Part shown: positions 1-26,744 of the stretch, piece after piece | Layout: every line of letters begins with the position of its first letter | Numbering within the stretch: the first letter of the stretch is position 1 | IMG/VR virus record: IMGVR_UViG_3300015608_001846 | Span: 120,001 to 150,835 of that record | Direction: 5' to 3' (one strand) | DNA from: a virus | DNA: 30,835 nt | Made by a program: the position numbers and the translations under genes | Notes under the pieces: model-generated | The model's database searches: none | What the model saw: the letters and a program-made list of their open reading frames with translations, nothing else | Told to the model about the DNA's origin: nothing

Positions 1-1359
1 AAAGCAACATCCGAAGGTCGACGACGAGCATTCATCGATGGAGATATCGTCGCCTGGAATAAAGGTCTGACCAAGGACAATGATCCCAGGGTCGCAGCAG
101 CCGCCGTAGCTCAACAACAGCGATTCGAGGCTAAAGACGTTCGACCTTGGGCTGAAGGCAAGACTGAAGCGGGTGATGAATGCATTCTTCGAAAAAACAA
201 TGCACTTCGAAAAAGGTACGCCAAAGGAGAGCTTGAACCTTGGTACAAGGGAAAGACGATCGCGTCTGAACCTCGATTAGAAAAACTCTGGCAACACCGT
301 GATCCTGTCAAAGAGTATGCTGGTATCCGATGGACGGATGATGAGATCAGGGGAAAACTTGCAGGGAACATGCAACTCATCCTGCAAGACATCGACGGTT
401 ACAGAAATGATCGGATCCCGGCGCTGGTTGTCATGTGCAGGACGTGCAGTGAAACATCGAAGGTTTCACTTGTCTTTGCAAGAAACGATCGCTGCCATCG
501 ATGTAACCCTACGAGCTCGGCCGGTCAGAATCAGATCGCTGATTGGTTGGAATCACTGGGACTCAAGGTCGGTCGCAATGTCAAGGGCATCATCGGAAAT
601 CGTCAAGAGCTTGACGTATACGTTCCTTCGCACAAGCTAGCGATCGAATTCAATGGACTCTATTGGCACAATGAAGCAGGTGGTAAGGGACCCAAGTACC
701 ATCAAAATAAGTCGAATCGGTGCGCTGAACTCGGGATCACACTGCAACATGTCTTCGAAGACGAATGGTATGAACGACCTGACATCGTCAAATCGATGAT
801 CATGCATCGACTGTCAATGACACCCAAGCGTACTTCTGCTCGTAAGTGCAATCTTCGTGAGGCAACGATCGATGAACGTCGAACGTTCTTCGAAGCAAAT
901 CACATTGATGGTGATGTGCCTTCAACGAAGGCATGGTGCCTCGTCGACGAAGAAGAGATCGTAGCGTGTATCTCGATACGAAAACCGTTTCACAAATCAC
1001 AAAGCAAATTGATCGAAATCGCTAGGTTTTCGACCAAAACGTACACTTCTTGCGCCGGCGCCCTAAGCAGATTGATGCGATGTGTGGTTGCATACACTCT
1101 AGAACACAAGCTCGCGGGAGTGATGACGTACGTTGACACACGCTTCGGTAATCGAGGAAAAGGTTACTGTAGCGCAGGTATGACATTCACAAAAGAAACA
1201 GAACCTAGGTTCTGGTGGACAGACAACCACCATCGATTCAATCGATTCAAGTTTCGAGCCGACAGAGGGAGGCAGATGTCAGAAGCTCAGGTCGCAGAAG
1301 CTGCTGACGTCGTCAAGATCTGGGGTTGCAAGAATCTTGTGTACCAAATCAACGTCTGA
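1..1359 (+). CDS. Homing-endonuclease-like protein, 5'-partial (Vsr/DUF559-type PD-(D/E)xK-fold nuclease core plus uncharacterised C-terminal domain)
   Basis: Frame 1 is open from base 1 through the listed ATG at 370 to TGA 1357-1359, so the gene enters from the left edge. It has repeated W-x-[KE]-G-[LK]-T motifs (AWNKGLT, PWAEGKT, PWYKGKT) and a CRTC..CHRC zinc-ribbon pair. The nuclease signature ELDVYVPSHKLAIEFNGLYWHNE is shared with ORFs 11695-12612, 25950-26699 and 29440-30835. It is the only credible plus-strand gene and is convergent with all neighbours. Confidence 0.6.
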   Translation, partial: KATSEGRRRAFIDGDIVAWNKGLTKDNDPRVAAAAVAQQQRFEAKDVRPWAEGKTEAGDECILRKNNALRKRYAKGELEPWYKGKTIASEPRLEKLWQHRDPVKEYAGIRWTDDEIRGKLAGNMQLILQDIDGYRNDRIPALVVMCRTCSETSKVSLVFARNDRCHRCNPTSSAGQNQIADWLESLGLKVGRNVKGIIGNRQELDVYVPSHKLAIEFNGLYWHNEAGGKGPKYHQNKSNRCAELGITLQHVFEDEWYERPDIVKSMIMHRLSMTPKRTSARKCNLREATIDERRTFFEANHIDGDVPSTKAWCLVDEEEIVACISIRKPFHKSQSKLIEIARFSTKTYTSCAGALSRLMRCVVAYTLEHKLAGVMTYVDTRFGNRGKGYCSAGMTFTKETEPRFWWTDNHHRFNRFKFRADRGRQMSEAQVAEAADVVKIWGCKNLVYQINV

Positions 1360-2776: not shown

Positions 2777-3385
2777 TCAACCGCTGGGTTCCATCAGCCG
2801 GTGCAACACCTGCGTCACCTGCTCGACAAGAGCGTTGGTGAGCTCCTCGTCTGCTAGGACCTGTTTGACGATCTTGACCGCAAAGTACTCCACGTCCTCG
2901 TACCGTCCCGGTCGCGCCGCCGTCTCATCATCGATCGTACCCAATACGATCTCGTATGCATCTGCAGCAACGTCGCTCTGTTCTAGCTGCTTGGTCAGGC
3001 TGATGACCATCGCGCTAGAGATTGCATCCAACGTGTCGTCCAGGTGAGAGTTCGGGATCACTCCTTCAGACTCATCGAGACGACGATCGATCGTCTGTCG
3101 AATGATTCGACGCAACGATTCCTTCGTCAGTCGTTTGACCGGGCGACGCCCCTCGAGGACGTCAGCCTCAAGCAACGCAGGGCAACCGGGAGCGTGTGAA
3201 TCGGTGCCGCCGCAGTCGGGACAACGTTCATCGTCACGTCGTTTAGGTTCGTTGGTGACCCACCCACAGTTGCGGCAGTGACGACCGCGCTCGCCCGGTT
3301 CAACCTTGCGATACCCATAGTCAGCGCAACTTGCGCACACGCTGGTCACCGGATCAAACGCAGCTTCGTTCATTTTCTTCATCAT
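2777..3385 (-). CDS. Zinc-ribbon protein with internal LRRIIRQTIDRR motif and acidic helical C-terminal half
   Basis: The first ~70 aa carry the cysteine pairs CASC..CRNC and CPDC..C. AGGTGA lies next to the ATG pair at 3385/3382. It follows the sheath gene by 48 nt on the same strand. Confidence 0.65.
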   Translation of the reverse strand: MMKKMNEAAFDPVTSVCASCADYGYRKVEPGERGRHCRNCGWVTNEPKRRDDERCPDCGGTDSHAPGCPALLEADVLEGRRPVKRLTKESLRRIIRQTIDRRLDESEGVIPNSHLDDTLDAISSAMVISLTKQLEQSDVAADAYEIVLGTIDDETAARPGRYEDVEYFAVKIVKQVLADEELTNALVEQVTQVLHRLMEPSG

Positions 3386-3433: not shown

Positions 3434-6400
3434 TCAAGGAACCTGGTTCAGGTTGTTGGCGACGGCAAAGTCAAGCGACACATATTCGATCGTCTTTGTC
3501 GGTTGGACAAAGATCTTTCCGCGGAGGGTGTTGTTCTCGATGTCAGCCTGTGTCGTCGTCGATGAATCAATGATGACCTTGAACTTCTCGAGGCCCGCCA
3601 GCGCCTGGATCCTCTGCAGGCGTGGGGTGATGGCATTCGAGAACTTGGCCAGTGTTGCCTCTCGGTTAGGTTCAAAGGTGATCGTGTGCGCAATGTCACG
3701 GACCTGTCGACGAATGTCAATCAGCAACCGACGAACGTTGACACGGTCGAGGGCGCTAGCGCCGGCCTGCAACGTCTTCTGACCCCAGACGATGACGCCA
3801 CCCTTTGGGTTGGTGCCAGACGAAGCGTTGCCAGGGAACGACACGATCGGATTGATGTTCACGTCGTACAACGTGTCCATGTTTTCCTTTTTCAACTGCA
3901 CACGAGCCTCAAGCGATGTCTGCAATGAACCTCGTGTGAAGCCTGCAGGAGCGAACCACGGGTGACCCAGCTTGTCATTGAGTGCCATCGCACCCAAGAC
4001 AACGACCGAAGGCGGCACGTATACGTTGGTCTTGGTCGTCGGATCCTGGATCAAAACATCCGGGAAGTAAGCAGCTGCGAAGCTGGTGTTCAGTGCACGT
4101 TCACTAAACTGCTGTGCTGTCAACTGGACAGACGGCAGCTGCGTATCGCTGACCACATCGTCACCCTGGTTGTCAAGCTGTTCGATGTCCATCAGGTACA
4201 GTGCATCGAACCTCTCTTCGACGGCATCCACGACGGCATTTGACACGATGGGGTGCCGGATACCCGGGATGACGAGCAGCTGCACATCAGCATTGACGAC
4301 GTTCTTCATGACGTCAAGCGCCTTCGCGAAGGCCCTGACCGACGGTCCATCGTTGCGACCGCGGTTGCCGTCGTTCATGTCAGCGACGACAGCGTTGTTG
4401 TTGATCTCAGACTCGTCTTTGTTGAAGATGTTGACACCGTCTGAACCGCCTTGCATCAAGAAGCTGTACTTCAGGAAGCGACGATTTGACTGGTTGAAGT
4501 CGTCGACTGTCACCTTACGTGTCTTGTTGGTTTCATCCGCCACGATGTTACCATCACGGACGTAAGTTGCCTGGTGCCACATGGTCGAGTCAGCGATGCC
4601 CGCTGAACTTGTCACCACTTTGATGTTTTCAAGCGTAAAGACGTTGCGACAGAAACGATCAGAATCTAACACTGAGTTCTCGGCAGTGTCTGGCGTCCCC
4701 GCGTTGTCACCTACGACGAAGTCTTGCAATGTCTCAAAGTGCGACGGGAAATAACCCGCAAACGCAGCCAACGATTTGTTCTGCAGGGTGCTGGCATTTG
4801 GTGTCGTCAAACTGGTGATGTGTTCGAACTGCACGCCCCAGTACAGCAGTGGGTTGAACGTTAACTTGGCGCCTGAACCTTGTGTGATGTTGCTTCGTAG
4901 CGGCAGGGGCGCCTCGACAGCACGTTTCAAGACCAGAGACGCTGTGATTTGCGATGACGTTGGGCTCGTCAACGGAGCAGAACCCGACGTGACCAGGTGG
5001 AGCGGGCCGCGAACACCGAAAGGTAACGCTGTAGGGTCGACTGACATGTTGTCGACCTCTTGCGAGACCTCGACCCTGATGAGGTTGGAGTTGTTCGGAT
5101 AGTTGCCATCGATGACGATCTTTTGGCTAGATTCCGCCCGATCCCAATCAAAGAAGATGTTCGCATCACCGATCACTTTGGCGATGTAGCGATCAGAACG
5201 TGGGTCCAGCGACAGGCCACGCCACTGTTCCAGGGGCTTGACAGATCCATCGTTGTCATCCCACTCCCTAACGATCAAATCAAAGCTACCGTACAGGTTC
5301 GACGGATCTGACGACGGAGCGATGTTCTCGATCGACAGCTTGAACAGGATCGAGACACCTGACCCAGCGTCGATAGCGTGCAAACGAAACAAGTTGGTCG
5401 CTTCGCCACCGAAACGCTGTGAAATGACCCACGGCGATCGAGCGTGAGAGTAGCGATCAGTCCATCCTTCATAGTTAGGCACGTAGCTGTTTCCGGTGTT
5501 CCTGGCAAGCGATGCCGTTGTCAAGAACGCAGCTGCTTCAGCTCCTGACTTTGAACCGCTGACGCCACCTGCACCAGAGACAGCATGTACCAAACCAGAA
5601 CCGGTGACGACCGCTGTCGACGGATGAACATCCCAGAAGGCATGCAAGTAGTGTCCCGCTTGTTGGTACTTCAACGGATCGCGATTCATGACGTTCGCAA
5701 AGTAATTTGGAGACGTCATGTCAAACGATGCCGTGATCACATTGGGATACAACGAATCTATTCCCTGGTGACCGTTCAACAGCATGACAAAGTCTTGCTT
5801 GGCGACCTGTCCATCAAGCAGAACGACAGAACCGATAAGACTGCCGCTAGCTGTCGTGTCAGTAGCAACTAACGTCGATGCGGGAGCTGAATTGATACCC
5901 TCCGCCGACGATGATAGACGCAAGATAACACCCGAAGGTGCCATGATAACGCCTCGGATGATCGGCACTGCAGTATTGACGCCAGCTGTCACGCTGCCTT
6001 GGCCTTGAAGGCCAGCGGCGCTGAAGACAGTCGAACCTGCAGACTCTGACATGAAAGCGCCTAAGAAATAGGTTCGGCCAGAGACGCTGAGGCTACCAGA
6101 GTTTGCATACGGGTTGCCAACCAGAGTGCCATCGCTGTCACGTGGTTGGTCCTCACCGACAGTGAAACCGGCTCGAGCGACTGACCCATCGGTCGACCGT
6201 CGACGACCGTCACCGACACCCAGGACGCGCAAGAAGGTTACTGCAGATGCATTACGCATCCACTCAGACACCGCAAGCGGACCAAACTTCTTGCCATCAG
6301 TCGGACCAAACTTGGCGTAAAAATCATCGACCAGGCCAACAGTGACCGGAACATAGGCAGGTCCCTTCAACGACGTGCCGATGACACCAGCAGGAACGCC

Positions 6401-6481
6401 GACCGGTTCCTGAGCGACCGGACCAGAAAGGTCGATCTCCTTTGCAGTCACGCCCGCGGAACCGAACTTTAATTGCGCCAT
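3434..6481 (-). CDS. Tail sheath protein, gp18-like, paralog 1 (1015 aa)
   Basis: The N-terminus reads EIDLSGPV..VGVPAGVIGTSLKGPAYVPV. The C-terminus reads WFAPAGFTRG..INPIVSF..WGQKTL..ALDRVNVRRLLIDIRR..KFKVIIDSSTTTQADIENNTLRGKIFVQPTKTIEYVSLDFAV. This parallels the T4 gp18 C-terminal domain (SPAGYNRG..INPV..YGDKT..DRINVRRLFN..YRVVCDTTNNTPSVIDRNEF..IQPARSINYITLNFV, recalled from memory). Confidence 0.88.
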   Translation of the reverse strand: MAQLKFGSAGVTAKEIDLSGPVAQEPVGVPAGVIGTSLKGPAYVPVTVGLVDDFYAKFGPTDGKKFGPLAVSEWMRNASAVTFLRVLGVGDGRRRSTDGSVARAGFTVGEDQPRDSDGTLVGNPYANSGSLSVSGRTYFLGAFMSESAGSTVFSAAGLQGQGSVTAGVNTAVPIIRGVIMAPSGVILRLSSSAEGINSAPASTLVATDTTASGSLIGSVVLLDGQVAKQDFVMLLNGHQGIDSLYPNVITASFDMTSPNYFANVMNRDPLKYQQAGHYLHAFWDVHPSTAVVTGSGLVHAVSGAGGVSGSKSGAEAAAFLTTASLARNTGNSYVPNYEGWTDRYSHARSPWVISQRFGGEATNLFRLHAIDAGSGVSILFKLSIENIAPSSDPSNLYGSFDLIVREWDDNDGSVKPLEQWRGLSLDPRSDRYIAKVIGDANIFFDWDRAESSQKIVIDGNYPNNSNLIRVEVSQEVDNMSVDPTALPFGVRGPLHLVTSGSAPLTSPTSSQITASLVLKRAVEAPLPLRSNITQGSGAKLTFNPLLYWGVQFEHITSLTTPNASTLQNKSLAAFAGYFPSHFETLQDFVVGDNAGTPDTAENSVLDSDRFCRNVFTLENIKVVTSSAGIADSTMWHQATYVRDGNIVADETNKTRKVTVDDFNQSNRRFLKYSFLMQGGSDGVNIFNKDESEINNNAVVADMNDGNRGRNDGPSVRAFAKALDVMKNVVNADVQLLVIPGIRHPIVSNAVVDAVEERFDALYLMDIEQLDNQGDDVVSDTQLPSVQLTAQQFSERALNTSFAAAYFPDVLIQDPTTKTNVYVPPSVVVLGAMALNDKLGHPWFAPAGFTRGSLQTSLEARVQLKKENMDTLYDVNINPIVSFPGNASSGTNPKGGVIVWGQKTLQAGASALDRVNVRRLLIDIRRQVRDIAHTITFEPNREATLAKFSNAITPRLQRIQALAGLEKFKVIIDSSTTTQADIENNTLRGKIFVQPTKTIEYVSLDFAVANNLNQVP

Positions 6482-6499
6482 CTCTATTCAACCTCGTGT

Positions 6500-6509
6500 C
6501 TAACTATTC
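6500..6509 (-). promoter_or_regulatory. GAATAGTTAG element 18 nt upstream of the sheath-1 start (variant of candidate late-promoter motif)
   Basis: The minus strand reads GGAATAGTTAGACACGAGGTTGAATAGAG-ATG. It shares GAATA[CG]TTA[CG] with the elements at 9669-9678 and 21746-21755. Confidence 0.3.
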
Positions 6510-6568
6510 CGAAATTAACGCTTTCACGCGTCGAACGCTAGAAGTGCATCAACGCCATCACTCATAAC

Positions 6569-6601
6569 GAACCTGCGTCAGTAAGCTACTGACGCAGGTT
6601 C
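6569..6601 (-). terminator. Perfect 15-bp stem / 3-nt loop hairpin between the two sheath genes (attenuator, terminator or RNA-stability element)
   Basis: cgaacctgcgtcagta-agc-tactgacgcaggttc. It lies 18 nt after the stop of 6619-9630 in the transcription direction. The downstream minus-strand tract CGUUAUGAGU is only weakly U-rich. Confidence 0.35.
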
Positions 6602-6618
6602 ATCAGATCGTATCGCTG

Positions 6619-9600
6619 TCAGACGAAGGCGATGCCGCTGCTTGTGATGATGAAATCAAGCGAGATGAATTCAATGACACGTGTTGGAACGATGACGACG
6701 CGGCCGCGCATGCGGTTAGCTTCGACATCCTCTTGCGTGTTGTTGGTTTCATTACAGACGACGCGGAACGTTTCGATACCAGCTTGGGCCTGGATCAGGC
6801 CAAGCTGCTGAACAGAGTCGCTAACAAACTTGTTCCTGACAGCCGGAGTGTTTTGATCGAACGCCAGCTTGTTAGCGATGCTGATGATGATTCGCTTGAC
6901 CTCAAGCAGCAAACGCCTGACGTTGACTCGATCCAAGGCTGACTTTGCAATCTGCAACGTCTTTTGCCCGTAGATGACATAACCCAACTTAGGGAACGTC
7001 GCAATGGGATTAATCCGCGAATCCTGCAGCCGATCACGATCAGGTACGCTGAGCCTGACCTCCACGTTTGTCACAAAGTCCAACGCAGCACGGTTGAAAC
7101 CAGCCGGAGCAAACCATGGGTAGGCTACTCGATCGTTGAAGGCCAACGCACCTAGCGCCGCCACAGACGCTGGTACCTTGACTCGTCGACGATTCGTCTT
7201 ATCGTCGATGAAAACGTTCGGAAAGTACGTTCCTGCGTAGTTGTTGTCGATGGCACGTGTATCGACAGCCGCGGCTGTCTTGTCCACGTCTGGCCTGTTG
7301 GTCGAGTCGTCATACAACCGTGTCGCTGTATCATCATATGACGGGATGTCCATGACGTAGAAGGCTAGGCCGTAATCACGAACCCGCTGCATCGCATAGT
7401 CGGTGATGAACGTCTCACGGATGCCTGGGACCGCCAAAACGTTGACGTTGACAGCCATCGGTTCCGTCATGATGTCGATCGCAGTGCGGTATGACATGAC
7501 GTTTGAGTTGTTCTGCCCGGTTCCATTCATGTTTGTCAACATGCCAGGCGAAACGTAGCTGGGTTCCGCGCCGCCCAGGGCATCGAACGACGTTGCCTTA
7601 TCGTTCATCCTGCGAGCGTCACGGTCGAGGAAATTGAGACCGTCGTAACCGCCAAACATCATGTTGGTGAACTTGGCGTACGGCGAGAACCTGTTAAAAT
7701 CGGGTGCTGTTCCCTTTGCCAGTAGCGTAGCAAACGTAATACGGTTACCGATGACACTGGGAATTGTGTAGCTGGCGAGGTCGATGTTAGCATCACGAAC
7801 GTAGGCCGCCTCACGCATGTGATCATTGATCGTACCCGTCAATTGTGAGATCGCTGTGTTCGAGAAGGCAACCTTGGCCAGAGTAAACTTGTTGTCATTG
7901 AACTGATCAGCGCCAGCGCCGGTGACCAAGACATCGAGCTTTTTGATGCCCATGAACTTGGTGAACGATTCAAGCAGGCGGTTCTTCTCGGTCGTGAGGT
8001 TTGGGTTCAACGGCGTCGTGTTACGTTCGAACTTGATTCCCCAATACAGTTGGGTCGTCGCTAGCTCAGTCGGCCCAGGCTGGCCTTGCCACGTTGCTGT
8101 GTTCGGGATCTCGCCTTTCGTTACCTTGAACCTGAACGGAACAGGGGGAAGGATCGATCCTGACAAGGCTGATCCAGAACTGATGCCAAGGACACCTGCC
8201 AGCCTTGGGTTCGACGGGGCCACATCTGTCAACAGATCATTTGTCTTGATGACTTCGATCCCGCGGAAGCCAAACGGCAACGCAGTTGCCGGGACCAGTG
8301 CTCGCTCAACAGCATCTGTCATGACGATCCTGACAAGCTTTGAAACGTTGTTGTAACGACCGAAGGTGACGATGCGGCGCTCGGAAGCGATGGTTGCGTC
8401 AAAGTTATAGGTGACCTTGCGATCACCGATCAGCTTGGCAACGTAGTTCTCTGCGTACGGATTGAGCGAACAGTTGGGGTACGACTCCAGGACGACTGGG
8501 GACGCATCTGTGTCGTTCCAGTCTCGGATCTGAACCGTAAACGTTCCATACTGATCTGATTCATCAAGCGATGCCTTGATGTTGGTGATCGAGATCTTGT
8601 AGAGCCTGTTAGCAAACTCTCCGTCGTCGATCGCCTCAAAGCTGAAGAGATCGTACTCAGTGGCACCGAAAGGTTGTGAGATAAACTTCGTCGTCTTGGG
8701 AGCGGTGAACCTGGTATCGTACGCACCGAAGGCCTTTCGCATCTCCAAAGAAGTGTTACCGGAGGAGGTGCTTGCACGAGCTGAGCCTGACAACACAGCG
8801 ACGACCGTCGCCGTTGCCAACTCATTGTCGACAGCAAAGTCTCCGTAGAGCAGGTGCTGTTCCTGCACCAATCGATCTGGATCCGTGTTTAAGACCTTAC
8901 CGAAGTAATCGGCGCTCGACGGATCGAACGATGCTGTCAAGATCTTAACGCCAGGGTTGTTGTCAGTATTGACAAATCCGTTACCCAACGTCGACGAGAT
9001 GACAAGCTTGAACTTACCGTTCACTGTCGTCGCAACGTCATCTGGACCCGCTGCAGTGAAGGCGCCGACGGCAGACTCGTTACCATCTAACACCATCATT
9101 CGCGCGCCCGAGGCCATCATCACCAAGCCTCGAACCAAGTTGACAGCTGCACCAGCATAAGACCGGTTGTCAGTGAACAGCGGCATACCGTAGGCCTCGT
9201 TAGCCTGCAAGGTGTGCTTGGCAACCAACATTTGGACAGCACCGGTGTGTCGTCCACGCGAGTCGTGCGCGGCGATGTTACCATCAAGGTAAAACCCAGC
9301 ATACTTGACACGACCGGTGGCATCAGACGTTGCGATGTCAGTCTCAGTTGCGTTGCCGCCCGCTCCTAGAACACGCAAGAACGTCAATGCAGACCGATGT
9401 GTCAGGTACTCCTTGACAGCATACGGGCCTGGACGCTTTTGATCAAGGTCACCAAAGATTGCTGAAAATTCATCAAAATTTGCCACCGTGACTGGAACAA
9501 AGGCGGGACCTTTGTTAGAAGTACTGATGACGCCCGCGGGGGTGCCGACTGGTCCGGTCAAGCGCGGCGCCGACAGATCGATCTCACGCTGGTAGAAGTT

Positions 9601-9630
9601 GGGTGACCTAAAAGTCTGTTCTTGAGGCAT
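6619..9630 (-). CDS. Tail sheath protein, gp18-like, paralog 2 (1003 aa)
   Basis: AGGAGAG RBS lies 7-8 nt before the ATG. The N-terminus is EIDLSAPRLTGPVGTPAGVISTSNKGPAFVPV. The C-terminus reads WFAPAGFNRA..INPIATF..YGQKTL..ALDRVNVRRLLLEVKR..FRVVCNETNNTQEDVEANRMRGRVVIVPTRVIEFISLDFII. It is clearly paralogous to 3434-6481 along its full length. Confidence 0.88.
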   Translation of the reverse strand: MPQEQTFRSPNFYQREIDLSAPRLTGPVGTPAGVISTSNKGPAFVPVTVANFDEFSAIFGDLDQKRPGPYAVKEYLTHRSALTFLRVLGAGGNATETDIATSDATGRVKYAGFYLDGNIAAHDSRGRHTGAVQMLVAKHTLQANEAYGMPLFTDNRSYAGAAVNLVRGLVMMASGARMMVLDGNESAVGAFTAAGPDDVATTVNGKFKLVISSTLGNGFVNTDNNPGVKILTASFDPSSADYFGKVLNTDPDRLVQEQHLLYGDFAVDNELATATVVAVLSGSARASTSSGNTSLEMRKAFGAYDTRFTAPKTTKFISQPFGATEYDLFSFEAIDDGEFANRLYKISITNIKASLDESDQYGTFTVQIRDWNDTDASPVVLESYPNCSLNPYAENYVAKLIGDRKVTYNFDATIASERRIVTFGRYNNVSKLVRIVMTDAVERALVPATALPFGFRGIEVIKTNDLLTDVAPSNPRLAGVLGISSGSALSGSILPPVPFRFKVTKGEIPNTATWQGQPGPTELATTQLYWGIKFERNTTPLNPNLTTEKNRLLESFTKFMGIKKLDVLVTGAGADQFNDNKFTLAKVAFSNTAISQLTGTINDHMREAAYVRDANIDLASYTIPSVIGNRITFATLLAKGTAPDFNRFSPYAKFTNMMFGGYDGLNFLDRDARRMNDKATSFDALGGAEPSYVSPGMLTNMNGTGQNNSNVMSYRTAIDIMTEPMAVNVNVLAVPGIRETFITDYAMQRVRDYGLAFYVMDIPSYDDTATRLYDDSTNRPDVDKTAAAVDTRAIDNNYAGTYFPNVFIDDKTNRRRVKVPASVAALGALAFNDRVAYPWFAPAGFNRAALDFVTNVEVRLSVPDRDRLQDSRINPIATFPKLGYVIYGQKTLQIAKSALDRVNVRRLLLEVKRIIISIANKLAFDQNTPAVRNKFVSDSVQQLGLIQAQAGIETFRVVCNETNNTQEDVEANRMRGRVVIVPTRVIEFISLDFIITSSGIAFV

Positions 9631-9668
9631 TACCGTGCTCTCCTGTGTCGGTGTTAAGAACCGCTACA

Positions 9669-9678
9669 GTAAGTATTC
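9669..9678 (-). promoter_or_regulatory. GAATACTTAC element, candidate phage (late) promoter, 38 nt upstream of the sheath-2 ATG
   Basis: The exact 10-mer gtaagtattc (plus strand) recurs at 21746-21755. Both copies have an identical 38-nt spacing to the start codon of a major structural gene. Confidence 0.35.
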
Positions 9679-9698: not shown

Positions 9699-10997
9699 TT
9701 ACGGCATGTCTTCTGTCGCGATGATCGATAGGCCTCCCAGGTCAGGCGTCGCTGACATGACAGTCTCACCGGTGAAGCGATTCGTCGTCACCACACGTGC
9801 GTAGCTCTCGGTGCGGTTACCTCGAGCATCGACACCGGTGATCTTACGGTAACGTGCAGGCGCAGCCCTGCCCAAGGCTTTGATCGCGGGATCGTCTGGG
9901 TTGTCGACTCCGGGACCTGGATATAGCCGCGTCGATCCATCATCACGAGCATCCCGGCGGCGTGGACGCTCGCCGGTGAGAGGTAACGTCGGATCGTCGG
10001 CACCCAAAAATGCAGGTTCGCCTTCGCCCAGAGAATCATCAGCAAGTGTCGGATCGACGCCCACGTCAAACGAGACGGTCGGTACTGAAACGTAACGTTT
10101 GATTGGAACGGGAGCACCCGGGACACGTGAAGCAAGGATGTAACCTAGAACCTTGACAGTGAACTTGTGTTTGATGATCCTCTCTTCGTTCGACATGTCA
10201 TCGACGTTGGTCTCAGCTGTGTAGACGTTTTCGTCGACGTGTGCCATGAACCAATATCCCTTAGGCGTCTCAAGCCTCCATGACTGTCCTTGTGGCAGGA
10301 ACGAACTGATCAGCTGCTCCAACAGCTGGACCATCTGAACTGTGTACTGCGTCCAAAACGTCACTTCGTACGTTGCTGTGTAGAACTGAGGTGAGGGGAC
10401 CACGATGGTCTCATAGACATTTCTTTGTCGATCAGCTAACAACAATCCACCTGATCGAACGACTGGGTCCTGTGCCAGGTCACCCAACTCTCGGCCGGGT
10501 GACACCGAACCGTCGTTAGTGGGTTCGACGAGCCCTTCTTGATTCGGAATCAACAATCGATTGATAAGCCGTTGGTACTGACGGTCCGATTTGTCTAGCC
10601 TGCGCTGGATGTGTATCTCACCGGTCTGCTGGTTTATCCCTCTACCGGTGATGTCATTGGGTCCAGATTGTTCGATCGACGTCCTGACGACAGTGATCAA
10701 CGGTAGGATCAACGTGTTGTTCCTGTCACGCAATGCGCGAGTTCGCTTCTGCAACGCCCACTTCTCACCCGACGCAAAGATGACTGGGACTCGAGAGTTG
10801 CCCGTTGACGTCTCTTGGTTCGAGGAGACCGTAAACTCGATCTCTTTATCAAACAACTTGAACAACGAACTGTCGACGTCTTCAATTCCCACGGCTGGGA
10901 TCGACAAATCGACAGGCGAAGAGTCAACACCGTACCCAGAAGGTAGGCCCGCCACTCCAAACCGTGACTGGCTGTTAGCGTTAAACCTCGTCGCCAT
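9699..10997 (-). CDS. gp15-like tail sheath stabiliser / tail terminator protein
   Basis: It lies directly upstream of the sheath genes. The segments VPVIFASGEKW, LILPLITVVRTS, YEVTFWTQYTVQMVQLLEQLISSFLP and IIKHKFTVKVLGYI parallel T4 gp15 (IRVPITYASKEHF, ILPRINLHL, YELSIFTRYEDDMFQIVEQILPYFQP, RIEWSLTFEVNGWMY, from memory). It is longer than T4 gp15 through a Pro/Asp/Arg-rich C-terminal extension. Confidence 0.65.
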   Translation of the reverse strand: MATRFNANSQSRFGVAGLPSGYGVDSSPVDLSIPAVGIEDVDSSLFKLFDKEIEFTVSSNQETSTGNSRVPVIFASGEKWALQKRTRALRDRNNTLILPLITVVRTSIEQSGPNDITGRGINQQTGEIHIQRRLDKSDRQYQRLINRLLIPNQEGLVEPTNDGSVSPGRELGDLAQDPVVRSGGLLLADRQRNVYETIVVPSPQFYTATYEVTFWTQYTVQMVQLLEQLISSFLPQGQSWRLETPKGYWFMAHVDENVYTAETNVDDMSNEERIIKHKFTVKVLGYILASRVPGAPVPIKRYVSVPTVSFDVGVDPTLADDSLGEGEPAFLGADDPTLPLTGERPRRRDARDDGSTRLYPGPGVDNPDDPAIKALGRAAPARYRKITGVDARGNRTESYARVVTTNRFTGETVMSATPDLGGLSIIATEDMP

Positions 10998-11007
10998 TCA
11001 TTAGTAC

Positions 11008-11682
11008 CTATTCGTCATAGAATGCGCTGCCGTGGTGTGAATCGTCAGCCAACGCTCCCCGCTCTGAGACCTCACGAGGACCGGTCAGCGGAGCGTCTAA
11101 CACACCGTTCCGTTGCAGGTCACGTACGTCTCCTGTCGGACCTTCTGAGTTCTCCACCTGTCCACGTTGCTGCACAAACGTCTTCTGAACTGCGTCTGCA
11201 TCGGTGTTGGTGATGTCAGTCGGGCCGTGTAACAACTCGCTGAACTGCCCCTCACGTGCCTTGGTCCCGACGACCTTGACGCCGGCCTTGTTTTCAGCCT
11301 GTCCGTAGATGTTCTTGACGATCGTCGAATCAGCGATCTCATAGAACACATCGTTGAAGGAAAAAAAGTCGCCGATGCAAACGTTGATCCCCTTGTCGGC
11401 CAGGTCACGGTACTGGATGAAGACCTCGAGCCTGTACTGCTGGTCGATGCCAAACTGGTTGACCTTCGTCTCGCTTTGGAACACGGCGTCGACCATTGCA
11501 TCGATGGCAATCGGATTGTCGAACACTTTCTTGATCGATTCATTGTAGACATCGTGTGCCAATGTCTTCAGCTCTGAGATCGGATAGTAGTAGACCTTGG
11601 CTCCGTTAACATCCTTGATCACTTCTTTGGTGATGTCAGAGATGAAGTTGAGCTCACGTGGAGTGATGAAGAGTCGAGCCAT
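11008..11682 (-). CDS. gp14-like neck protein (assignment mainly by synteny)
   Basis: It sits between the gp13-like and gp15-like genes, as in T4-type neck modules. The pattern ITKEVIKDV.G..VYYYPIS...T.AHDVYNESIKK...GDFFSFNDVFYEI resembles gp14-family proteins as I recall them. Confidence 0.5.
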   Translation of the reverse strand: MARLFITPRELNFISDITKEVIKDVNGAKVYYYPISELKTLAHDVYNESIKKVFDNPIAIDAMVDAVFQSETKVNQFGIDQQYRLEVFIQYRDLADKGINVCIGDFFSFNDVFYEIADSTIVKNIYGQAENKAGVKVVGTKAREGQFSELLHGPTDITNTDADAVQKTFVQQRGQVENSEGPTGDVRDLQRNGVLDAPLTGPREVSERGALADDSHHGSAFYDE

Positions 11683-11694
11683 GGACGAGCCTAA

Positions 11695-12612
11695 TTAGGC
11701 ATCCGGATCATTCTTGAACTCGGCGTCAGTGATCCGAATGAAACGCAGGCCCTCGGCGTCAAACCAGGCATCCTGCTGACGATCGACGAGCCATTTTCGA
11801 TAGATCCCCATGTCACGGCGATGACCCGACATTCCTGACTCTCTGATCAATTCGATGGGTCGATCGAGGCCGTGCCAGTAGACGCCGTCGAATTGAACGT
11901 ACGTGTCGATGCTCTTGATGTGAAAATCGATCGACCAGCGCTTGTTCATGACGACCTGGCGTTCGACATCATCTTCACCAAATTTCTCGCAGAGCAACTC
12001 ATAGAACGCGTTCTCGGGTTTCGATTGAAACAACGTTCCCTCGCGGGCGCGCTTGTGCAGGACCTCAGCTGCGTGTTCAGCGTTCATCTGATGGTACGGC
12101 ACCCCGTACTTTGCGATCGTACCTGAGATCATTGCCTCGCGGACGTGGACGAGCTGCATCGGGTATTTGACGCCCCAGTTCTTGATCATCGTTGCCTGAC
12201 GTTTTTTGACGATGTCAGGATGTGTTTGAGGATGATCTCCAAAGTTAGCGCGCATCGTCTGCATTGCTTTCGTTCGAACTTCAATCGACGATGGACCCTG
12301 CTCAACACCGTACTTCTTTTTCCACGTAGAACGCATCTTTTGCTTGCATGGCTCAGCCGCGAATGGATTTTCAGCACCGTAGCGTTCTACACAGGTTGCA
12401 GCCCGTTGACGCTCAATCACACCACCATTCTTGTGAGCAATGCTCTTGCATGCCTCAGAACAAGTGTGCACTTTTGTGTGTTTAGCATCAGCTATTGAGC
12501 CACGTGTTTCCCACTCAATGCCGCACACATCACATCGCAAACAAAGAACATTGTGTTTGAAAGATCTACCCAAGCGATCAACTCGAACACCAACCTTCAC
12601 ATCATAAAGCAC
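11695..12612 (-). CDS. Free-standing homing-endonuclease-like protein (zinc motif + YG repeats + Vsr/PD-(D/E)xK-type nuclease core)
   Basis: GTG start. It has an N-terminal cysteine cluster CLRCDVCG..HTCSEAC and degenerate repeats RYGAENPF, KYGVEQGP, NWGVKYPM, KYGVPYHQ. The C-terminal core is SIDFHIKSIDTYVQFDGVYWHGLDR. It is inserted between the gp13-like and gp14-like genes. Confidence 0.65.
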   Translation of the reverse strand: MLYDVKVGVRVDRLGRSFKHNVLCLRCDVCGIEWETRGSIADAKHTKVHTCSEACKSIAHKNGGVIERQRAATCVERYGAENPFAAEPCKQKMRSTWKKKYGVEQGPSSIEVRTKAMQTMRANFGDHPQTHPDIVKKRQATMIKNWGVKYPMQLVHVREAMISGTIAKYGVPYHQMNAEHAAEVLHKRAREGTLFQSKPENAFYELLCEKFGEDDVERQVVMNKRWSIDFHIKSIDTYVQFDGVYWHGLDRPIELIRESGMSGHRRDMGIYRKWLVDRQQDAWFDAEGLRFIRITDAEFKNDPDA

Positions 12613-12654: not shown

Positions 12655-13863
12655 TTACCCAATTATCACGCTGCGTCCCAATGGCATCGGGATCAATCGC
12701 AACTGAGCTTGAAGCGACTGTGCCAATGAGACCTGTGCCTCCGTCAACGCCTTGTTCGTCAGCTTGCTCAACCATTCCTTGATCTGATCGCGCAATCGGT
12801 TTTGGTCCTCACGACCTTGTGCGACGAGCTCGGCGCCGTTGAGCTTGAGTTCAGCGTTCGGGATCGGAATCGTATCAAACTTGCTGCGATTCAGGCCCAA
12901 CAGCTCTCGACACAGGGCCAACGTGTATTGCCGAATCCACTGACGACCAGGTTGCGTGATGGTGCTAAACGGTAGGTTACCCAAGGGTACGTTGCTGGGA
13001 CCTGAGATGCCGTACAACGTAGAATCACCAACGCTGCCAGAGACCAGGCTGCCACCGATGGCTGTCGGATCCAGTGGGCTATTGGGTTTAGCAAACACCT
13101 TGACCCACAGCTTGCCTAGCTGGATGTTCGTCATCGGGATCGGATAGATCCTCAGGTTGCTACCGATGATGTCGTAACTGTAGTTCGATCGTCGAACACG
13201 GAATGCTGTCTCGAGCATGCCACGACGCAGGACGTCCTCAAAGACTGGCAGCACGTAGAAGACGCTGCTGTTGACGTATGATTCATAATTGAAGTTCGTT
13301 GCAAGGAAGTTGGTGATGTTGGAGGCATTGAGAAGGAACTGTTGGGCTGCCAACGGCTCAAAGTGGAACACCTCAACGATCCTCATCTTGCCGCGCGACC
13401 CTGATGGGATCGACAGCCACAGGTTTGAACCGCTAGCGGGCTCCTTGATGTCGCGGTAGATGTCATAGTCCTGCTGCCCGCCCACAAGATCGATGTAACC
13501 CAGCTGAGCATCATAAGAGCCCCCGAGGTATGCTTCGGTGGCATAGGGTTCTGCTAAGCGGATCAAAAACTCCAACGATTGCCTGGGATGTATGTTTGTC
13601 AGGTCGGTCGACCCAGTAGGCAGGCCTAGCACGTTGACCAATTCAGACTCAATCTTCATCTCATGGACGAGGCGCGAGTACTCAGCGACTGCTTCTTCAA
13701 AGCATGCCCAAATCTCTTTCTTTGTCAATTCGACAGACAGGACGTCATCACCCATCTTGCGCTTGACAAACGTCACCATACCATCAGCCTCAGCCTGGAA
13801 CTGGGCATCAGCGTCAAAGAACCCAAAGGGGGTTGGGTTTATCGTCTCAATGAATGAAGGCAT
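12655..13863 (-). CDS. gp13-like neck protein
   Basis: ATG 13863 with AAGGG RBS is preferred over the TTG at 13893. FVKRKMGDDVLSVELTKKEIWACFEEAVAEY parallels T4 gp13 [30 protein letters not shown]. The C-terminal RQWIRQYTLALCRELLG..LNGAELVAQGREDQNRLRDQI..PMPLGRSVIIG parallels [46 protein letters not shown] (from memory). Confidence 0.75.
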   Translation of the reverse strand: MPSFIETINPTPFGFFDADAQFQAEADGMVTFVKRKMGDDVLSVELTKKEIWACFEEAVAEYSRLVHEMKIESELVNVLGLPTGSTDLTNIHPRQSLEFLIRLAEPYATEAYLGGSYDAQLGYIDLVGGQQDYDIYRDIKEPASGSNLWLSIPSGSRGKMRIVEVFHFEPLAAQQFLLNASNITNFLATNFNYESYVNSSVFYVLPVFEDVLRRGMLETAFRVRRSNYSYDIIGSNLRIYPIPMTNIQLGKLWVKVFAKPNSPLDPTAIGGSLVSGSVGDSTLYGISGPSNVPLGNLPFSTITQPGRQWIRQYTLALCRELLGLNRSKFDTIPIPNAELKLNGAELVAQGREDQNRLRDQIKEWLSKLTNKALTEAQVSLAQSLQAQLRLIPMPLGRSVIIG

Positions 13864-13920
13864 GCCCTTAAATAACGGGGCGTTGCTGCACAAAGCAATC
13901 AGAACGAAGTTGTTACTGCC

Positions 13921-14508
13921 TCAGCGGCGACGACCGATGAGAGCACGAGCGAGGTCTCGTCCCGCAGAAACTGTGTTGTCAACGTGTTTAGCCTTGTAGC
14001 GTTCACGCAACGTTGTTGGGTTGACAGAGGTTGGTGCCTCCTTGGACGTGACTGGCTCAACCTGTTGCCCATTGACGTCAGTCTTCTCAACAACGTGCCT
14101 GGTGACCTTGGGCGTCTCCTCCTTAGGCTTGACGATGGGAACCACTGACACCTTGGGTGCGGTTGGCTGCACGTGCCTAACTGTCGACAACGATTCTGCA
14201 ACGACGCGGACCGGTTTCTTGAAGTTGATGTTGAATGACACCGGAGCGAAATAGCGATTCTCTAACAGGACCTCAACACGTGCGTTGTAGTTGCCCTCTG
14301 ACAATCGACCTTTCATCGAAGGAATGACAAACGCAACGACGTCAGGTTGGTCACACGCCCTGCCAGAGAACATGTAAGACACGTCAGTCGATTCGCAAAC
14401 CAACCGCACGCGTGCCGGTGTCGGATCTGTCCCTTCGACTGTCACGCGGAAGAGCAACTCATTGCTCTCCTCGGGATCAAGGACGATGGTTTCTTGGACT
14501 AGTTCCAT
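13921..14508 (-). CDS. Hypothetical virion-associated protein (beta-rich N-terminal half, Lys/Pro/Val-rich linker, basic C-terminus)
   Basis: 195-aa ORF on the same strand, tightly packed between fibre-block genes and the gp13-like gene. No family recognised. Confidence 0.55.
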   Translation of the reverse strand: MELVQETIVLDPEESNELLFRVTVEGTDPTPARVRLVCESTDVSYMFSGRACDQPDVVAFVIPSMKGRLSEGNYNARVEVLLENRYFAPVSFNINFKKPVRVVAESLSTVRHVQPTAPKVSVVPIVKPKEETPKVTRHVVEKTDVNGQQVEPVTSKEAPTSVNPTTLRERYKAKHVDNTVSAGRDLARALIGRRR

Positions 14509-14517
14509 CGATGCTAA

Positions 14518-14877
14518 CTATCGGCGTAAACGCTCAACAAACACACGAACGTGGTCCCACACTGAAGTCACACGTGTCGCAACGTGTTCGACAAGCGCTG
14601 ACACCGTGCCCGGGCGCACGTTGACGACGACGCTGCCTTCGACCCTGTGTGGAGGCGGGAAATCGTTGACTTCGATCAACTGGGCCCATATGACGACCTG
14701 CTGCAGGTCATCGACCTTCACACCTCCAGATCGACCGTGTGGTCGTCGTAGTAGCTCCTCAACGCCGGCAACGAATATTCCTGGAGGCCCTCCATAGCCC
14801 ATCGTGACTGGCCCGGCGCGCGCGACCACCGAACGACTGGGTCCCAATCCACGACAGACTATCCGGTTGGTGATCAC
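14518..14877 (-). CDS. Hypothetical small protein
   Basis: The GTG start lies 2 nt after the upstream stop, suggesting translational coupling. 119 aa. The competing plus-strand ORF 14462-14797 is less plausible in an all-minus operon. Confidence 0.45.
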   Translation of the reverse strand: MITNRIVCRGLGPSRSVVARAGPVTMGYGGPPGIFVAGVEELLRRPHGRSGGVKVDDLQQVVIWAQLIEVNDFPPPHRVEGSVVVNVRPGTVSALVEHVATRVTSVWDHVRVFVERLRR

Positions 14878-14879
14878 CG

Positions 14880-15365
14880 TCAGGCCTTCTGGCGCTCGAA
14901 GACAGCGTCCATCGAAGGATTACCTAGGTCATCAAACAGGTTGAACCGTGCCACCTCAGTGACGTTATCTTCCTTGTAAAACACCATCTGGTTCGAAACG
15001 ATCTTCCAGCGACCGTACGCTGAATCGTAGAGCTGACCTAACGTCCCCGACATGGTGTTGACAGTGCGGTGTACATCGTCAATCTTGGGGTTGTTTTCTT
15101 CGATGTTGAACTGCTCGATAGCGTAAGACGCCGTTGGAAACGCCGAGCCGGTGTCCCACACCAGCTGGCCCCGAAAGTCGTTTGGAAAGTTGATGTACGC
15201 TGCGTACAACCCGCTGCCCGACACCAGCTGGTAGACGCCTGCTGTCGTTCTGGGGGCGAGCGCGCTACCAGACACATCGTAGACAGTGTAACCGACCCCT
15301 GACGATCCAGTCGCATTCGATCGGTTACGTCCAAAGTTGCAATTCCTGAGTTGTTGCAACGCCAT
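14880..15365 (-). CDS. Hypothetical fibre-block protein
   Basis: Its ATG shares one base with the upstream stop (TGATG). 161 aa, Gly/Ser/Tyr-rich beta-type composition. Confidence 0.55.
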   Translation of the reverse strand: MALQQLRNCNFGRNRSNATGSSGVGYTVYDVSGSALAPRTTAGVYQLVSGSGLYAAYINFPNDFRGQLVWDTGSAFPTASYAIEQFNIEENNPKIDDVHRTVNTMSGTLGQLYDSAYGRWKIVSNQMVFYKEDNVTEVARFNLFDDLGNPSMDAVFERQKA

Positions 15366-16042
15366 CAGAACACCGTACCAAAAAACAACGCATTTGACAC
15401 TGAATCAGCAGGCAGCACCACCAACAGCTGCACGGCGCTGGGCCACTCTGCAGTGCCGGTCCAAGAGGCCGAATAGACGCCCGGTGTTGTCAAGATCTGG
15501 TGACTGGCGCCTGCTGAACGAAAATCAGCAAGCATGTTGCTCTCTTCTACCTGAGGGAAGGTGGCTGCCTGCGTCCCCGGCTGATACTCGGCTATGAATG
15601 CATCGAGCAGTGCTGCATTCGCATATGGGACCGTGATCGTCGTAGAGAAAAACGTGATGTTCGAACGGTATGAGCCACCGTTAGACGCAACCGGGTTGTC
15701 CTTCACACCTGCAAACGAGGCGACGGTCAGCTTGATCCGGTCACCAGACGGAATGATCGCTGCTGCGGCAGTGTACGTGCCTGCAGCGGGGAGCTGCGAC
15801 TCACGGAGGTAATAGAATGAGACGCGCTTTGATGCATCAGTGTGGGTCGCAGTCGTGTATGGTATCATCTGCACACCGTTGTACGTGCAGCTGAGGACGT
15901 TGAGGGCCGAAGGACCAGAGAACGACGTTGTGTGGACCCAAGCGATGACGATGCGATCGGAACCCGACGCTAGGGTGTGTGAAACTGAGACGCTGGGTGC
16001 TGTTCCCTCGACCTGTGCCGATGAATCGTACGTGATAGTCAT
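15365..16042 (-). CDS. Hypothetical fibre-block protein (beta-sandwich-like composition, possible distal or receptor-binding component)
   Basis: TAATG overlap with the upstream fibre gene. 225 aa, Ser/Thr/Ala-rich. Function not assignable from sequence alone. Confidence 0.55.
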   Translation of the reverse strand: MTITYDSSAQVEGTAPSVSVSHTLASGSDRIVIAWVHTTSFSGPSALNVLSCTYNGVQMIPYTTATHTDASKRVSFYYLRESQLPAAGTYTAAAAIIPSGDRIKLTVASFAGVKDNPVASNGGSYRSNITFFSTTITVPYANAALLDAFIAEYQPGTQAATFPQVEESNMLADFRSAGASHQILTTPGVYSASWTGTAEWPSAVQLLVVLPADSVSNALFFGTVF

Positions 16043-20102: not shown

Positions 20103-21707
20103 TCAGCCGTAAATGATCATCGACAGCTGCGAGCCCGATCTGACAGTGAACGGAAACTTTAGGTCACCCGTTGAGATCGTAGTACCCGGATAGACGTCGT
20201 TCGGATCGGCTGACGTCAATCCAGGCAGCAACAAAACGCCGTTGTAGTAGATCTCAACGTCTTTCTTGAAATCACGACCGACGTAGCTGCCCAACTGAGC
20301 ATCGAGGTTGGTCGGGAAGGTGATGTTGGTGTCAGCAACGGTGTCAACGTTGATGCCAGCGGTGTAGCGGCGACGCTTGACGCTCGAAGACAGCGACTGT
20401 GAGATGAAGTTGAAGGCACCAAGCACGCTAGAGACGCCGTAGCCGCTGACAAAGCTGTTCCACTCGATCGTCGACGTCGACAGAGGAATGATACCACCCG
20501 TGTACGTTGAACCGACGCCAAAAAAGTCAGCGAACCTCAACTGAGAACCGCCAGACAGCAACAAGTTGGTGCCGCTCAATGTGTTGACAGTTCCAGCGAT
20601 GACGCCCACGTTGACCTGTGACGTAGCTGACGATGTTGCGACAGAGATGCCTTGATTGAAGCTCGAAGCAACTGAGCTCGAGAAGGCAATACGACTGACA
20701 TTGACAGTCATGGTGTCTTCGGTGTCGGACGACACCAGCTTCCACAACTCGGTAGTACCCGACAAGAATGCCCAAGAAAAACCGGCTGCGATCTGGATGG
20801 CGATGTTCTGTGTCTGGGTGACCGTGCCGGCCTGGTTATCAATGGCACGATCTAACGTGATGTCAGTGAAGGTCAGGCCTCCACCGGCGCCGCCCGCTGA
20901 TTCCGGAACGTCGAGGAAGATCCGGTCACGGAGGTACGCATCCTCCGGGATGTCATCGAGTGACGATCGTCGAACATAGGAGTACGTGATAGCGCGCCCG
21001 CCGACTGCGCCTGCGTTAGCAGGGGTCAGGCTTGAGGTCTGATTGATCGTCACTTCATAGACAAAGGAGATCTGTGATCGGTGTGTCGAATCATTGAACA
21101 CGTCTCCTGTCACAGTGCCGTTCTCTACCTGCAACAGGCCGTAGACATCGCGCCCGTTAGAGGCGGTGATGTTGTTGCCCGACCAGGCGTCGCGGATGAT
21201 GACCAGGTTCTTGGGTGATGTCACTGTCGAACCCGACGTTTGGGCCATGCTGTGCGCAGCGTACGTACCCTCAGAACCACTCAACAGTGCAACGAGCGAT
21301 CCGGTCGCTAGCGTCGACGCCAGGTTTGGGTGGCTGACGACGGCAAAGTTTGCAGGAGCTGTCCCCAGCGCCGAAGACAGAAGGGCAAAGTTGCTACCCG
21401 TCGCGACGCTAACAATGTTGAGGTTGGTGTTCCGGAACAGGAAGCGCTTCTGTTCGAGATCTGTCAGGTCAGAGTTCAACGTGTTCAGACCACGTGCCGA
21501 GTTCGAACCTGACGGAGCTGTGATAGCATCGTACCACGAACCAGACACACCGGCCCAAAGGATGCGACGGATCTGTGATCTGATTGCGTTCAGGTCTGTC
21601 TGGATTGACGTCGACGCTGTCTGCAACGTAGAACCTGCAGCCAGGGTGTCATCAAACTGATCCGACTTAAAGACTTGGGTGGGTTGATCGATGAACGTTC
21701 GAGGCAT
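20103..21707 (-). CDS. Virion structural protein (fibre or baseplate-associated), 534 aa
   Basis: AAGGTG RBS. It is Ser/Thr/Gly/Asn-rich with beta-type composition. The N-terminal segment TDLNAIRSQIRRILWAGVSGSWYD is of a kind seen in phage fibre-like structural proteins. It is preceded by the GAATACTTAC element. Confidence 0.6.
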   Translation of the reverse strand: MPRTFIDQPTQVFKSDQFDDTLAAGSTLQTASTSIQTDLNAIRSQIRRILWAGVSGSWYDAITAPSGSNSARGLNTLNSDLTDLEQKRFLFRNTNLNIVSVATGSNFALLSSALGTAPANFAVVSHPNLASTLATGSLVALLSGSEGTYAAHSMAQTSGSTVTSPKNLVIIRDAWSGNNITASNGRDVYGLLQVENGTVTGDVFNDSTHRSQISFVYEVTINQTSSLTPANAGAVGGRAITYSYVRRSSLDDIPEDAYLRDRIFLDVPESAGGAGGGLTFTDITLDRAIDNQAGTVTQTQNIAIQIAAGFSWAFLSGTTELWKLVSSDTEDTMTVNVSRIAFSSSVASSFNQGISVATSSATSQVNVGVIAGTVNTLSGTNLLLSGGSQLRFADFFGVGSTYTGGIIPLSTSTIEWNSFVSGYGVSSVLGAFNFISQSLSSSVKRRRYTAGINVDTVADTNITFPTNLDAQLGSYVGRDFKKDVEIYYNGVLLLPGLTSADPNDVYPGTTISTGDLKFPFTVRSGSQLSMIIYG

Positions 21708-21745: not shown

Positions 21746-21755
21746 GTAAGTATTC
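21746..21755 (-). promoter_or_regulatory. GAATACTTAC element, candidate phage (late) promoter, 38 nt upstream of ATG 21707
   Basis: Exact copy of the 10-mer at 9669-9678, with identical spacing to the start codon. Confidence 0.35.
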
Positions 21756-25465: not shown

Positions 25466-25471
25466 GGTTAA

Positions 25472-26699: not shown

Positions 26700-26744
26700 G
26701 AAAGTAACTATCTAGTGAAGTGTGGAAGCATTCAAAATAGAACC

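Follow-up and report, generated by a model that had tools for sequence, protein, structure and literature searches.

The final 30.8 kb of a 150.8-kb viral contig (IMG/VR record IMGVR_UViG_3300015608_001846; hereafter the window, 30,835 nucleotides corresponding to positions 120,001 to 150,835 of the record) carries two complete genes for tail sheath proteins of the T4 gp18 type, which we term paralogs A and B and which lie head to tail with 137 bp between them. Judging from their sequences and those of their relatives, we regard it as settled that both encode sheath-fold proteins that are functional and maintained by selection, and we consider it probable, at roughly 0.6, that both proteins do structural work as subunits in the same contractile tail sheath. 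As the contig is 45% complete according to CheckV, the genome should measure roughly 330 kb. Coordinates given below are those of the window unless a genome or another locus is named.

6619-9630, minus strand: sheath paralog A, 1003 aa, complete gp18-type protein without internal stops
3434-6481, minus strand: sheath paralog B, 1015 aa, complete gp18-type protein without internal stops

Sequence and predicted fold of the two sheath paralogs

The preliminary description of this DNA had recognised two intact, tandem sheath paralogs at these positions, and this reading holds: both open reading frames (ORFs) are open throughout, and both products match sheath proteins. At 1.52 and 1.54 times the 659 aa of T4 gp18, A and B are also about 50% longer than that protein, as had been estimated. 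BLASTP aligned the two end to end at 34% identity (1065 columns, E 1e-162), and the 75 residues past the EIDLS motif of the N-terminal arm form a gap-free alignment in which 42 (56%) are identical, close to the value of about 60% previously judged by eye.

Both proteins matched PHROG 23, annotated as 'tail sheath' (E 2e-49 for A and 8.5e-53 for B), and, using phmmer, T4 gp18 from PDB entry 9mkb (E 3.7e-29 and 1.2e-22, respectively). Their matches to Pfam PF17482 were below the gathering threshold (20.7 bits for A and 23.4 bits for B vs 26.9 bits), and a precomputed PF17482 match is recorded for many of the listed homologs of B. Comparison of the family profile with the C-terminal domain of gp18 using hhalign gave a probability of 99.6%, and the C-terminal sheath core homologous to domain IV of gp18 is present in A and B. 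Similarity of the two proteins to the Afp and Pvc sheath proteins is confined to this core.

AlphaFold models, for which an alignment of 76 sequences served as input, had predicted local distance difference test (pLDDT) scores of 86.5 for A and 83.2 for B and predicted template modelling (pTM) scores of 0.81 and 0.83, respectively. The top Foldseek match in the PDB was for both models T4 gp18 in the portal-neck-tail complex (9mkb; E 2.3e-19 for A and 6.6e-19 for B), and the leading matches of both comprised T4 gp18 and the Klebsiella KP1 sheath (E 1e-16 to 1e-19), with target-normalised template modelling scores of 0.47-0.54. Named top matches in BFVD were tail sheath proteins, bar one that is labelled 'tail connector protein'. 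Low pLDDT was found in the first 22-28 residues and in the last few, as would be expected of extended arms that are exchanged between subunits. Both models are gp18-like, which, together with the end-to-end alignment, is the outcome of the check by pairwise alignment and structure prediction that the preliminary description had put forward.

The conserved N- and C-terminal sheath domains that had been noted in both proteins were likewise found, in the form of both arms and the C-terminal core. The motif of the N-terminal arm reads RSPNFYQREIDLS in A and GSAGVTAKEIDLS in B, and can be aligned with LLSPGIELKETT of T4 as well as with the arms of Mel-JY01, SP-15 and one of the PaBG copies. The loss of residues or strands needed for handshake assembly had been named as grounds for doubting one of the copies. 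The arm motif, S-P/A-G-x4-E-x-D, and the C-terminal handshake strand are present in A and B, and because the motif aligns in both, neither copy is without the handshake elements. The arm motif is kept in the A and B orthologs examined and is degenerate only in a third paralog, C, described below. The C-terminal core of B and its orthologs also contains a conserved loop insertion of nine residues, NASSGTNPK (B residues 882-893, at about 3800-3840, minus strand), that is absent from A and from T4 gp18.

Relatives, duplication history and selection

A scan of IMG/VR returned 80 loci, the relatives referred to throughout, whose A orthologs are by BLAST 49-77% identical to A; single loci are cited below by an L number. 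Whether related phages carry one or two copies had been left to be checked, and the answer was A plus B in all sufficiently long loci: a B ortholog (47-76% identical) directly follows A in every locus with enough downstream DNA, and one subclade adds C. Cross-identity between A and B in the relatives is a steady 30-36%. Searches of whole records gave exactly two sheath copies for a relative whose 297,894-bp genome is complete and bears terminal repeats, two likewise for a 309-kb relative at 91% completeness, and three for a relative belonging to the three-copy subclade. Relatives are phage genomes, with sizes of 298-309 kb and completeness of 91-100%.

More than 1,800 homologs were identified at E<=1e-20 in a large protein database, on contigs of up to 357 kb, and none of them came from a named cultured phage; a megablast search of the 6.2-kb region against cultured phages similarly gave no match. 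The best tblastn matches were Microcystis phage Mel-JY01, which has a single sheath gene (31% identity), and the uncultured 484-kb phage LR756508. That a single sheath gene is the norm, as the preliminary description had it, agrees with a sheath search of a phage collection, which yielded only 2747 matching places over 2679 records. Interruption of the sheath genes by introns in relatives was considered and rejected, as the long tblastn spans in question ran into the adjoining paralog.

The third tandem copy, C, is present in six loci (L018, L023, L024, L028, L029 and L079), is 46-48% identical to B and lacks the EIDLS motif of the N-terminal arm. The following C copies, of 1041-1053 aa, are given in the coordinates of their loci.

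L018, 16294-19434: sheath paralog C
L023, 16316-19450: sheath paralog C
L028, 16296-19457: sheath paralog C
L029, 10669-13812: sheath paralog C
L079, 16285-19410: sheath paralog C

Between B and C lies a conserved hairpin, rich in G+C and trailed by a T-rich stretch (AAGGGCTTC...GAGGCCCTTAATTATTT), which is a candidate terminator; an ATAGTTA motif follows it. In the most distant subclade, the apparent break in the B ortholog of L066 (7766-9505) proved to be an additional domain of ~130 aa, inserted in frame past residue ~160; the outer domains of B thus gain modules.

To place the paralogs, a maximum-likelihood tree was built from 61 sheath proteins and 949 columns, with branch support from the Shimodaira-Hasegawa-like approximate likelihood ratio test. 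A orthologs formed one clade and B orthologs another, each with 100% support, and the two are sisters through a branch with 99% support; the pair has therefore persisted since before the clade diversified. C is nested within the B clade (100%), pointing to a later duplication. PaBG and Lu11, with two paralogs each, and the single-copy RSL1 form a separate clade (100%), and the single-copy sheaths of SP-15, PA5oct, Flavobacterium immuto and Mel-JY01 branch between this clade and that of A and B. Approximately unbiased (AU) tests rejected the joining of A to either of the PaBG/Lu11 paralog groups (log-likelihood drops of 166 and 175; p 2.7e-5 and 6.9e-5). A duplication common to PaBG/Lu11 and A/B is ruled out by the tree and these tests, and because the AU tests reject such groupings, there is, on the phylogenetic evidence, one duplication at the base of the A/B clade that is independent of the one in PaBG/Lu11.

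A different arrangement was seen in the unrelated, uncultured 484-kb phage mentioned above (LR756508.1, locus L003), which has two 824-aa sheath genes ~1 kb apart (9914-12388 and 13403-15877). Of these, one clusters with the lone Mel-JY01 sheath, and a very long branch leads to the other; the pair is possibly a further independent sheath duplication.

Within the relatives, the A and B families are conserved along their full length (column identity 0.53-0.90). Both are under strong purifying selection: the ratio of nonsynonymous to synonymous substitution rates (dN/dS) ranged over 0.05-0.08 in A and 0.07-0.10 in B, and over 0.12-0.24 in C, values that are to be read with synonymous sites near saturation in mind. 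Because of the clade-wide conservation, the dN/dS of 0.05-0.10, and the ribosome-binding site and promoter-like motif that each gene has of its own, A and B are both very probably functional. Pairwise divergences of A and B in 19 genomes were correlated (r = 0.90, slope 1.01) with means of 0.363 and 0.369, respectively, and their codon statistics are alike, with an effective number of codons of 47.7 for A and 47.1 for B and a G+C content at third codon positions of 0.64 and 0.63. Equal divergence and equal codon statistics therefore give A and B the look of two equal partners and not of a major and a minor part. Codon bias was also considered as a proxy for abundance and set aside, since A and B do not differ in it and the readings weighed below are thus not discriminated.

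The outer domains are the most diverged, with an agreement between the A and B consensus of 0.07-0.5 across residues 90-650, and 57 invariant positions in the C-terminal core are common to both paralogs. At 38 positions each paralog has a fixed residue of its own; the density of such positions peaks in the C-terminal core (7 per 100 aa), and some lie in each of the two terminal arms. That such paralog-specific residues are dense in the lattice-forming core would fit non-equivalent positions of A and B in the lattice.

Expression signals and gene neighbourhood

Each copy had previously been credited with a ribosome-binding site of its own, and these could be read as AGGAG for A and GAGG for B. 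The signals on the minus strand around the two genes, together with the other coding-strand copies of the promoter-like motif, are as follows.

9640-9644, minus strand: Shine-Dalgarno sequence AGGAG of A, 9 nt before the A ATG
9670-9676, minus strand: promoter-like motif ATACTTA, 39 nt before the A start codon
6492-6495, minus strand: Shine-Dalgarno sequence GAGG of B, 10 nt before the B ATG
6501-6507, minus strand: promoter-like motif ATAGTTA, 19 nt before the B start codon
14515-14521, minus strand: ATA[CG]TTA copy
21747-21753, minus strand: ATA[CG]TTA copy
25469-25475, minus strand: ATA[CG]TTA copy
25663-25669, minus strand: ATA[CG]TTA copy
26705-26711, minus strand: ATA[CG]TTA copy
6570-6600, minus strand: perfect 13-bp hairpin with a 5-nt loop, starting 18 nt past the A stop codon

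The motif ATA[CG]TTA (ATASTTA) occurs eight times in the window vs 1.25 expected; seven copies lie on the coding strand, most of them shortly ahead of an ORF start, and its sites precede both sheath genes as well as a 534-aa gene at 20103-21707. Among distinct upstream regions of relatives, the slightly looser form ATA[GCT]TTA precedes A in 43 of 45 cases (about -35 to -45), B in 26 of 29 and C in 5 of 5 (-25 to -35 for B and C), set against a background rate of 3.7% of 125-nt windows. Because the motif is kept upstream of A, B and C in relatives, each sheath gene appears to have its own promoter-like element, and we propose ATA[CG]TTA as a candidate phage late-promoter-like element, one per sheath gene.

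The A-B intergenic region has a predicted folding energy of -52 kcal/mol (RNAfold), and the hairpin that follows A is a possible terminator, attenuator or RNA-stabilising element. A hairpin in this place was found in some relatives only (L006, L007, L015, L017 and L051); of the distinct A-B spacers that were examined, roughly one in four has one. We consequently rejected a conserved attenuator and place the hairpin outside the conserved design.

The surrounding genes that bear on the sheath module, and the homing endonuclease genes interspersed with it, are listed below.

9699-10997, minus strand: gp15-like tail sheath stabiliser/connector, 432 aa, directly upstream of A
119021-119506 in genome coordinates, minus strand: gp19-like tube gene, 0.5-1 kb before the window start
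1-1359, plus strand: homing endonuclease gene (HNH or GIY-YIG), its ORF beginning 371 nt before the window
11695-12612, minus strand: homing endonuclease gene (HNH or GIY-YIG)
22878-23657, minus strand: homing endonuclease gene (HNH or GIY-YIG)

Neck genes and the gp15-like gene lie upstream of the sheath pair. The product of the latter matched Pfam PF16724, T4-gp15_tss (31.8 bits vs a cut-off of 25, E 1.1e-7), and gave a weak match to PHROG 227, 'tail sheath stabilizer'. The family profile covers only residues 198-288 of this protein, and its extra parts may relate to docking onto a two-protein sheath.

The preliminary description had the second sheath copy taking over the position of the tube gene, which proved mistaken: a gp19-like gene, whose product and the Mel-JY01 tube protein share 49% identity (E 1.7e-46), still lies downstream of the sheath module, just outside the window. 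Here, ~4 kb separates B from the tube gene, a stretch that contains an HNH homing endonuclease gene on the plus strand as well as small ORFs. The ORF at 2777-3385 was examined as a candidate tube gene and rejected, as it has no PHROG or Pfam match and the gp19-like gene was found outside the window. In many relatives the tube gene is located ~70-150 nt past the last sheath copy, and because it directly succeeds that copy, the ancestral order, as read from the relatives, is gp15-like gene, sheath A, sheath B, (sheath C), tube gene.

Free-standing HNH and GIY-YIG homing endonuclease genes are dispersed in the structural module, with one located between B and the tube gene. In relative L031, a 254-aa uncharacterised ORF (10907-11671), possibly an endonuclease gene, lies between A and B, and relative L034 has a similar A-B spacer of ~820 nt.

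A probable two-component sheath, its alternatives and known systems

In our reading, a single duplication at the base of a clade of uncultured T4-like phages, with genomes of about 300-360 kb, gave rise to two full-length gp18-type proteins whose genes would each be transcribed late from their own promoter-like element. Each protein keeps the elements by which sheath subunits are tied to one another through strand exchange and held on the tube: an N-terminal arm (SPx/SAG...EIDLS), a C-terminal strand and a C-terminal core. We infer that both proteins would be present in the virion and would co-assemble, with A and B co-polymerising around the gp19-like tube in a fixed pattern. The likeliest pattern would be alternating hexameric rings, comparable to Pvc2 and Pvc3 of Photorhabdus PVC particles, giving a two-ring repeat of differing outer domains on the tail surface; this pattern, and a ratio of roughly 1:1, is our guess. 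In the PVC particle PlPVC1, the sheath starts with the initiator Pvc4 and continues as alternating layers of Pvc2 and Pvc3 that are joined by strand-exchange handshakes (PMC12546770).

Several points weigh against this proposal. The third paralog, C, fits position-specific roles at least as well as it fits an even mixture; the compatibility of A-B interfaces is inferred from conservation alone; and matching rates and codon bias are poor guides to whether the two proteins are equally abundant. In addition, the strong hairpin after A could lower transcription of B relative to A, though B has its own promoter-like motif.

The main rival is a position-specific sheath, in which one paralog would form the bulk and the other just one or a few special rings by the baseplate or by the gp15-like neck connector, in the manner of the initiators Pvc4 and Afp4. 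A dedicated initiator paralog does exist in PlPVC1, the paralog-specific fixed residues in core and arms would suit a special junction, and the hairpin after A could set unequal expression. Such a role is most plausible for C, which evolves faster (dN/dS 0.12-0.24), has lost EIDLS and looks like a terminal-ring specialist, so that specialisation of this kind does seem to occur in the lineage. We nevertheless consider it less probable for the pair itself, as A and B are alike in length, domain layout, evolutionary rate and codon bias, and both keep the canonical arms. T4-type tails, moreover, begin and end their sheath on gp25-like and gp15-like proteins, with no special gp18. In PaBG, both sheath proteins appear among the protein bands of the structural proteome, as separate bands of the virion on sodium dodecyl sulfate-polyacrylamide gels, in Table 1 of PMC7412058, which also speaks against a position-specific role.

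Of the remaining alternatives, the one we hold least probable is that tails are made of either A or B, according to host or conditions, so that two particle types with different exposed domains would result. The outer domains are indeed the most diverged (agreement 0.07-0.5, residues 90-650), and each gene has its own promoter-like element; however, the motif is the same on both genes and so does not point to differential control, the divergences of A and B track each other at a slope of 1.0, and paralog-specific changes are densest in the core and not on the surface. We know of no precedent for such a system, and literature searches yielded none. It is also highly improbable that one paralog has been neofunctionalised and now serves as an outer tail decoration, an assembly chaperone or a decoy: the sub-gathering Pfam sheath-domain scores of both proteins would be in keeping with this, but the whole gp18 fold, both arms and the 57 shared invariant positions of the C-terminal core are kept, purifying selection extends along the full length, and the gene lies inside the sheath-tube module in all relatives. 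We favour co-assembly of A and B in one sheath over alternative sheaths, and the data do not separate an evenly mixed sheath from a position-specific one.

To our knowledge, a one-protein sheath is assumed in nearly all structural models of how tails contract. That another phage lineage has independently kept two and sometimes three sheath proteins over a long divergence, with orthologs down to ~50% identity, suggests that heteromeric sheaths are recurrent and not an oddity of PaBG. This sizeable, globally distributed clade turns up widely in metagenomes, so the trait may be frequent in nature, though rare in cultured phages. The A/B(/C) set would provide a natural system for the study of a helical contractile lattice with non-identical subunits, and of how position-specific subunits arise from bulk ones. 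For annotation, it means that the sheath is unusable as a single-copy marker gene in the A/B clade.

Among known sheaths, T4 gp18 is the best sequence and structure match for A and B, with which it has in common the N-terminal motif, the C-terminal domain and the gene order gp15-sheath-tube; it differs in being encoded by a single gene, and A and B are each ~350 residues longer than its 659 aa, in the outer domains. The type VI secretion system, to which the preliminary description had drawn an analogy, also builds a contractile sheath from two gene products. This analogy fails because TssB and TssC (VipA and VipB) are not paralogs and together make up a single protomer. A and B, by contrast, are paralogs that align end to end and each cover the whole of gp18, and are thus whole protomers.

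Extracellular contractile injection systems (eCISs) come closer, in that their adjacent gp18-fold paralogs (Pvc2-4, Afp2-4) co-assemble in one sheath and resemble the A/B(/C) set, which is known here from genes. A multi-paralog sheath of Afp2, Afp3 and Afp4 has reportedly been described for such a contractile injection system by Desfosses in 2019. These systems are capsid-less, tailocin-like bacterial particles with subunits of 350-470 aa, whereas A and B are ~1000 aa and belong to a phage head-neck-tail module. We rejected the possibility that the A/B locus is itself an eCIS, given the viral contig, the phage-genome relatives, and the neck and gp15-like genes upstream.

For Pseudomonas phage PaBG, Evseev et al. 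2020 (PMC7412058) describe, citing Kurochkina 2018, a 'unique two-component tail sheath' whose paralogs are 38% identical; for the content of Kurochkina et al. 2018 (Virology 515:46) we follow PMC7412058 and PMC6357053. The PaBG sheath genes encode about 530-550 aa and are some 119 kb apart. PaBG and Lu11 resemble the phage studied here as jumbo myoviruses in which duplication has produced two diverged, full-length sheath paralogs (38% identity there, 34% here). They differ in that their duplication was a separate one, and in that A and B are adjacent, ~1000 aa long, accompanied by a third copy in some relatives and known from genes alone. Literature searches for phages with several sheath genes found none beyond PaBG. 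Tentatively, and at somewhat less than even odds, we would go further and suggest that A and B are obligate partners in an ordered heteropolymer, as alternating rings or as three plus three subunits per ring, with C as a terminal-ring specialist; this would make the set a convergent phage counterpart of Pvc4 with Pvc2 and Pvc3, and multi-subunit sheaths a repeated invention of giant phages. Collectively, the data suggest that A and B are an independently evolved further case of a known, rare arrangement, one that would work like the sheaths of PaBG and PVC without descent from that of PaBG.

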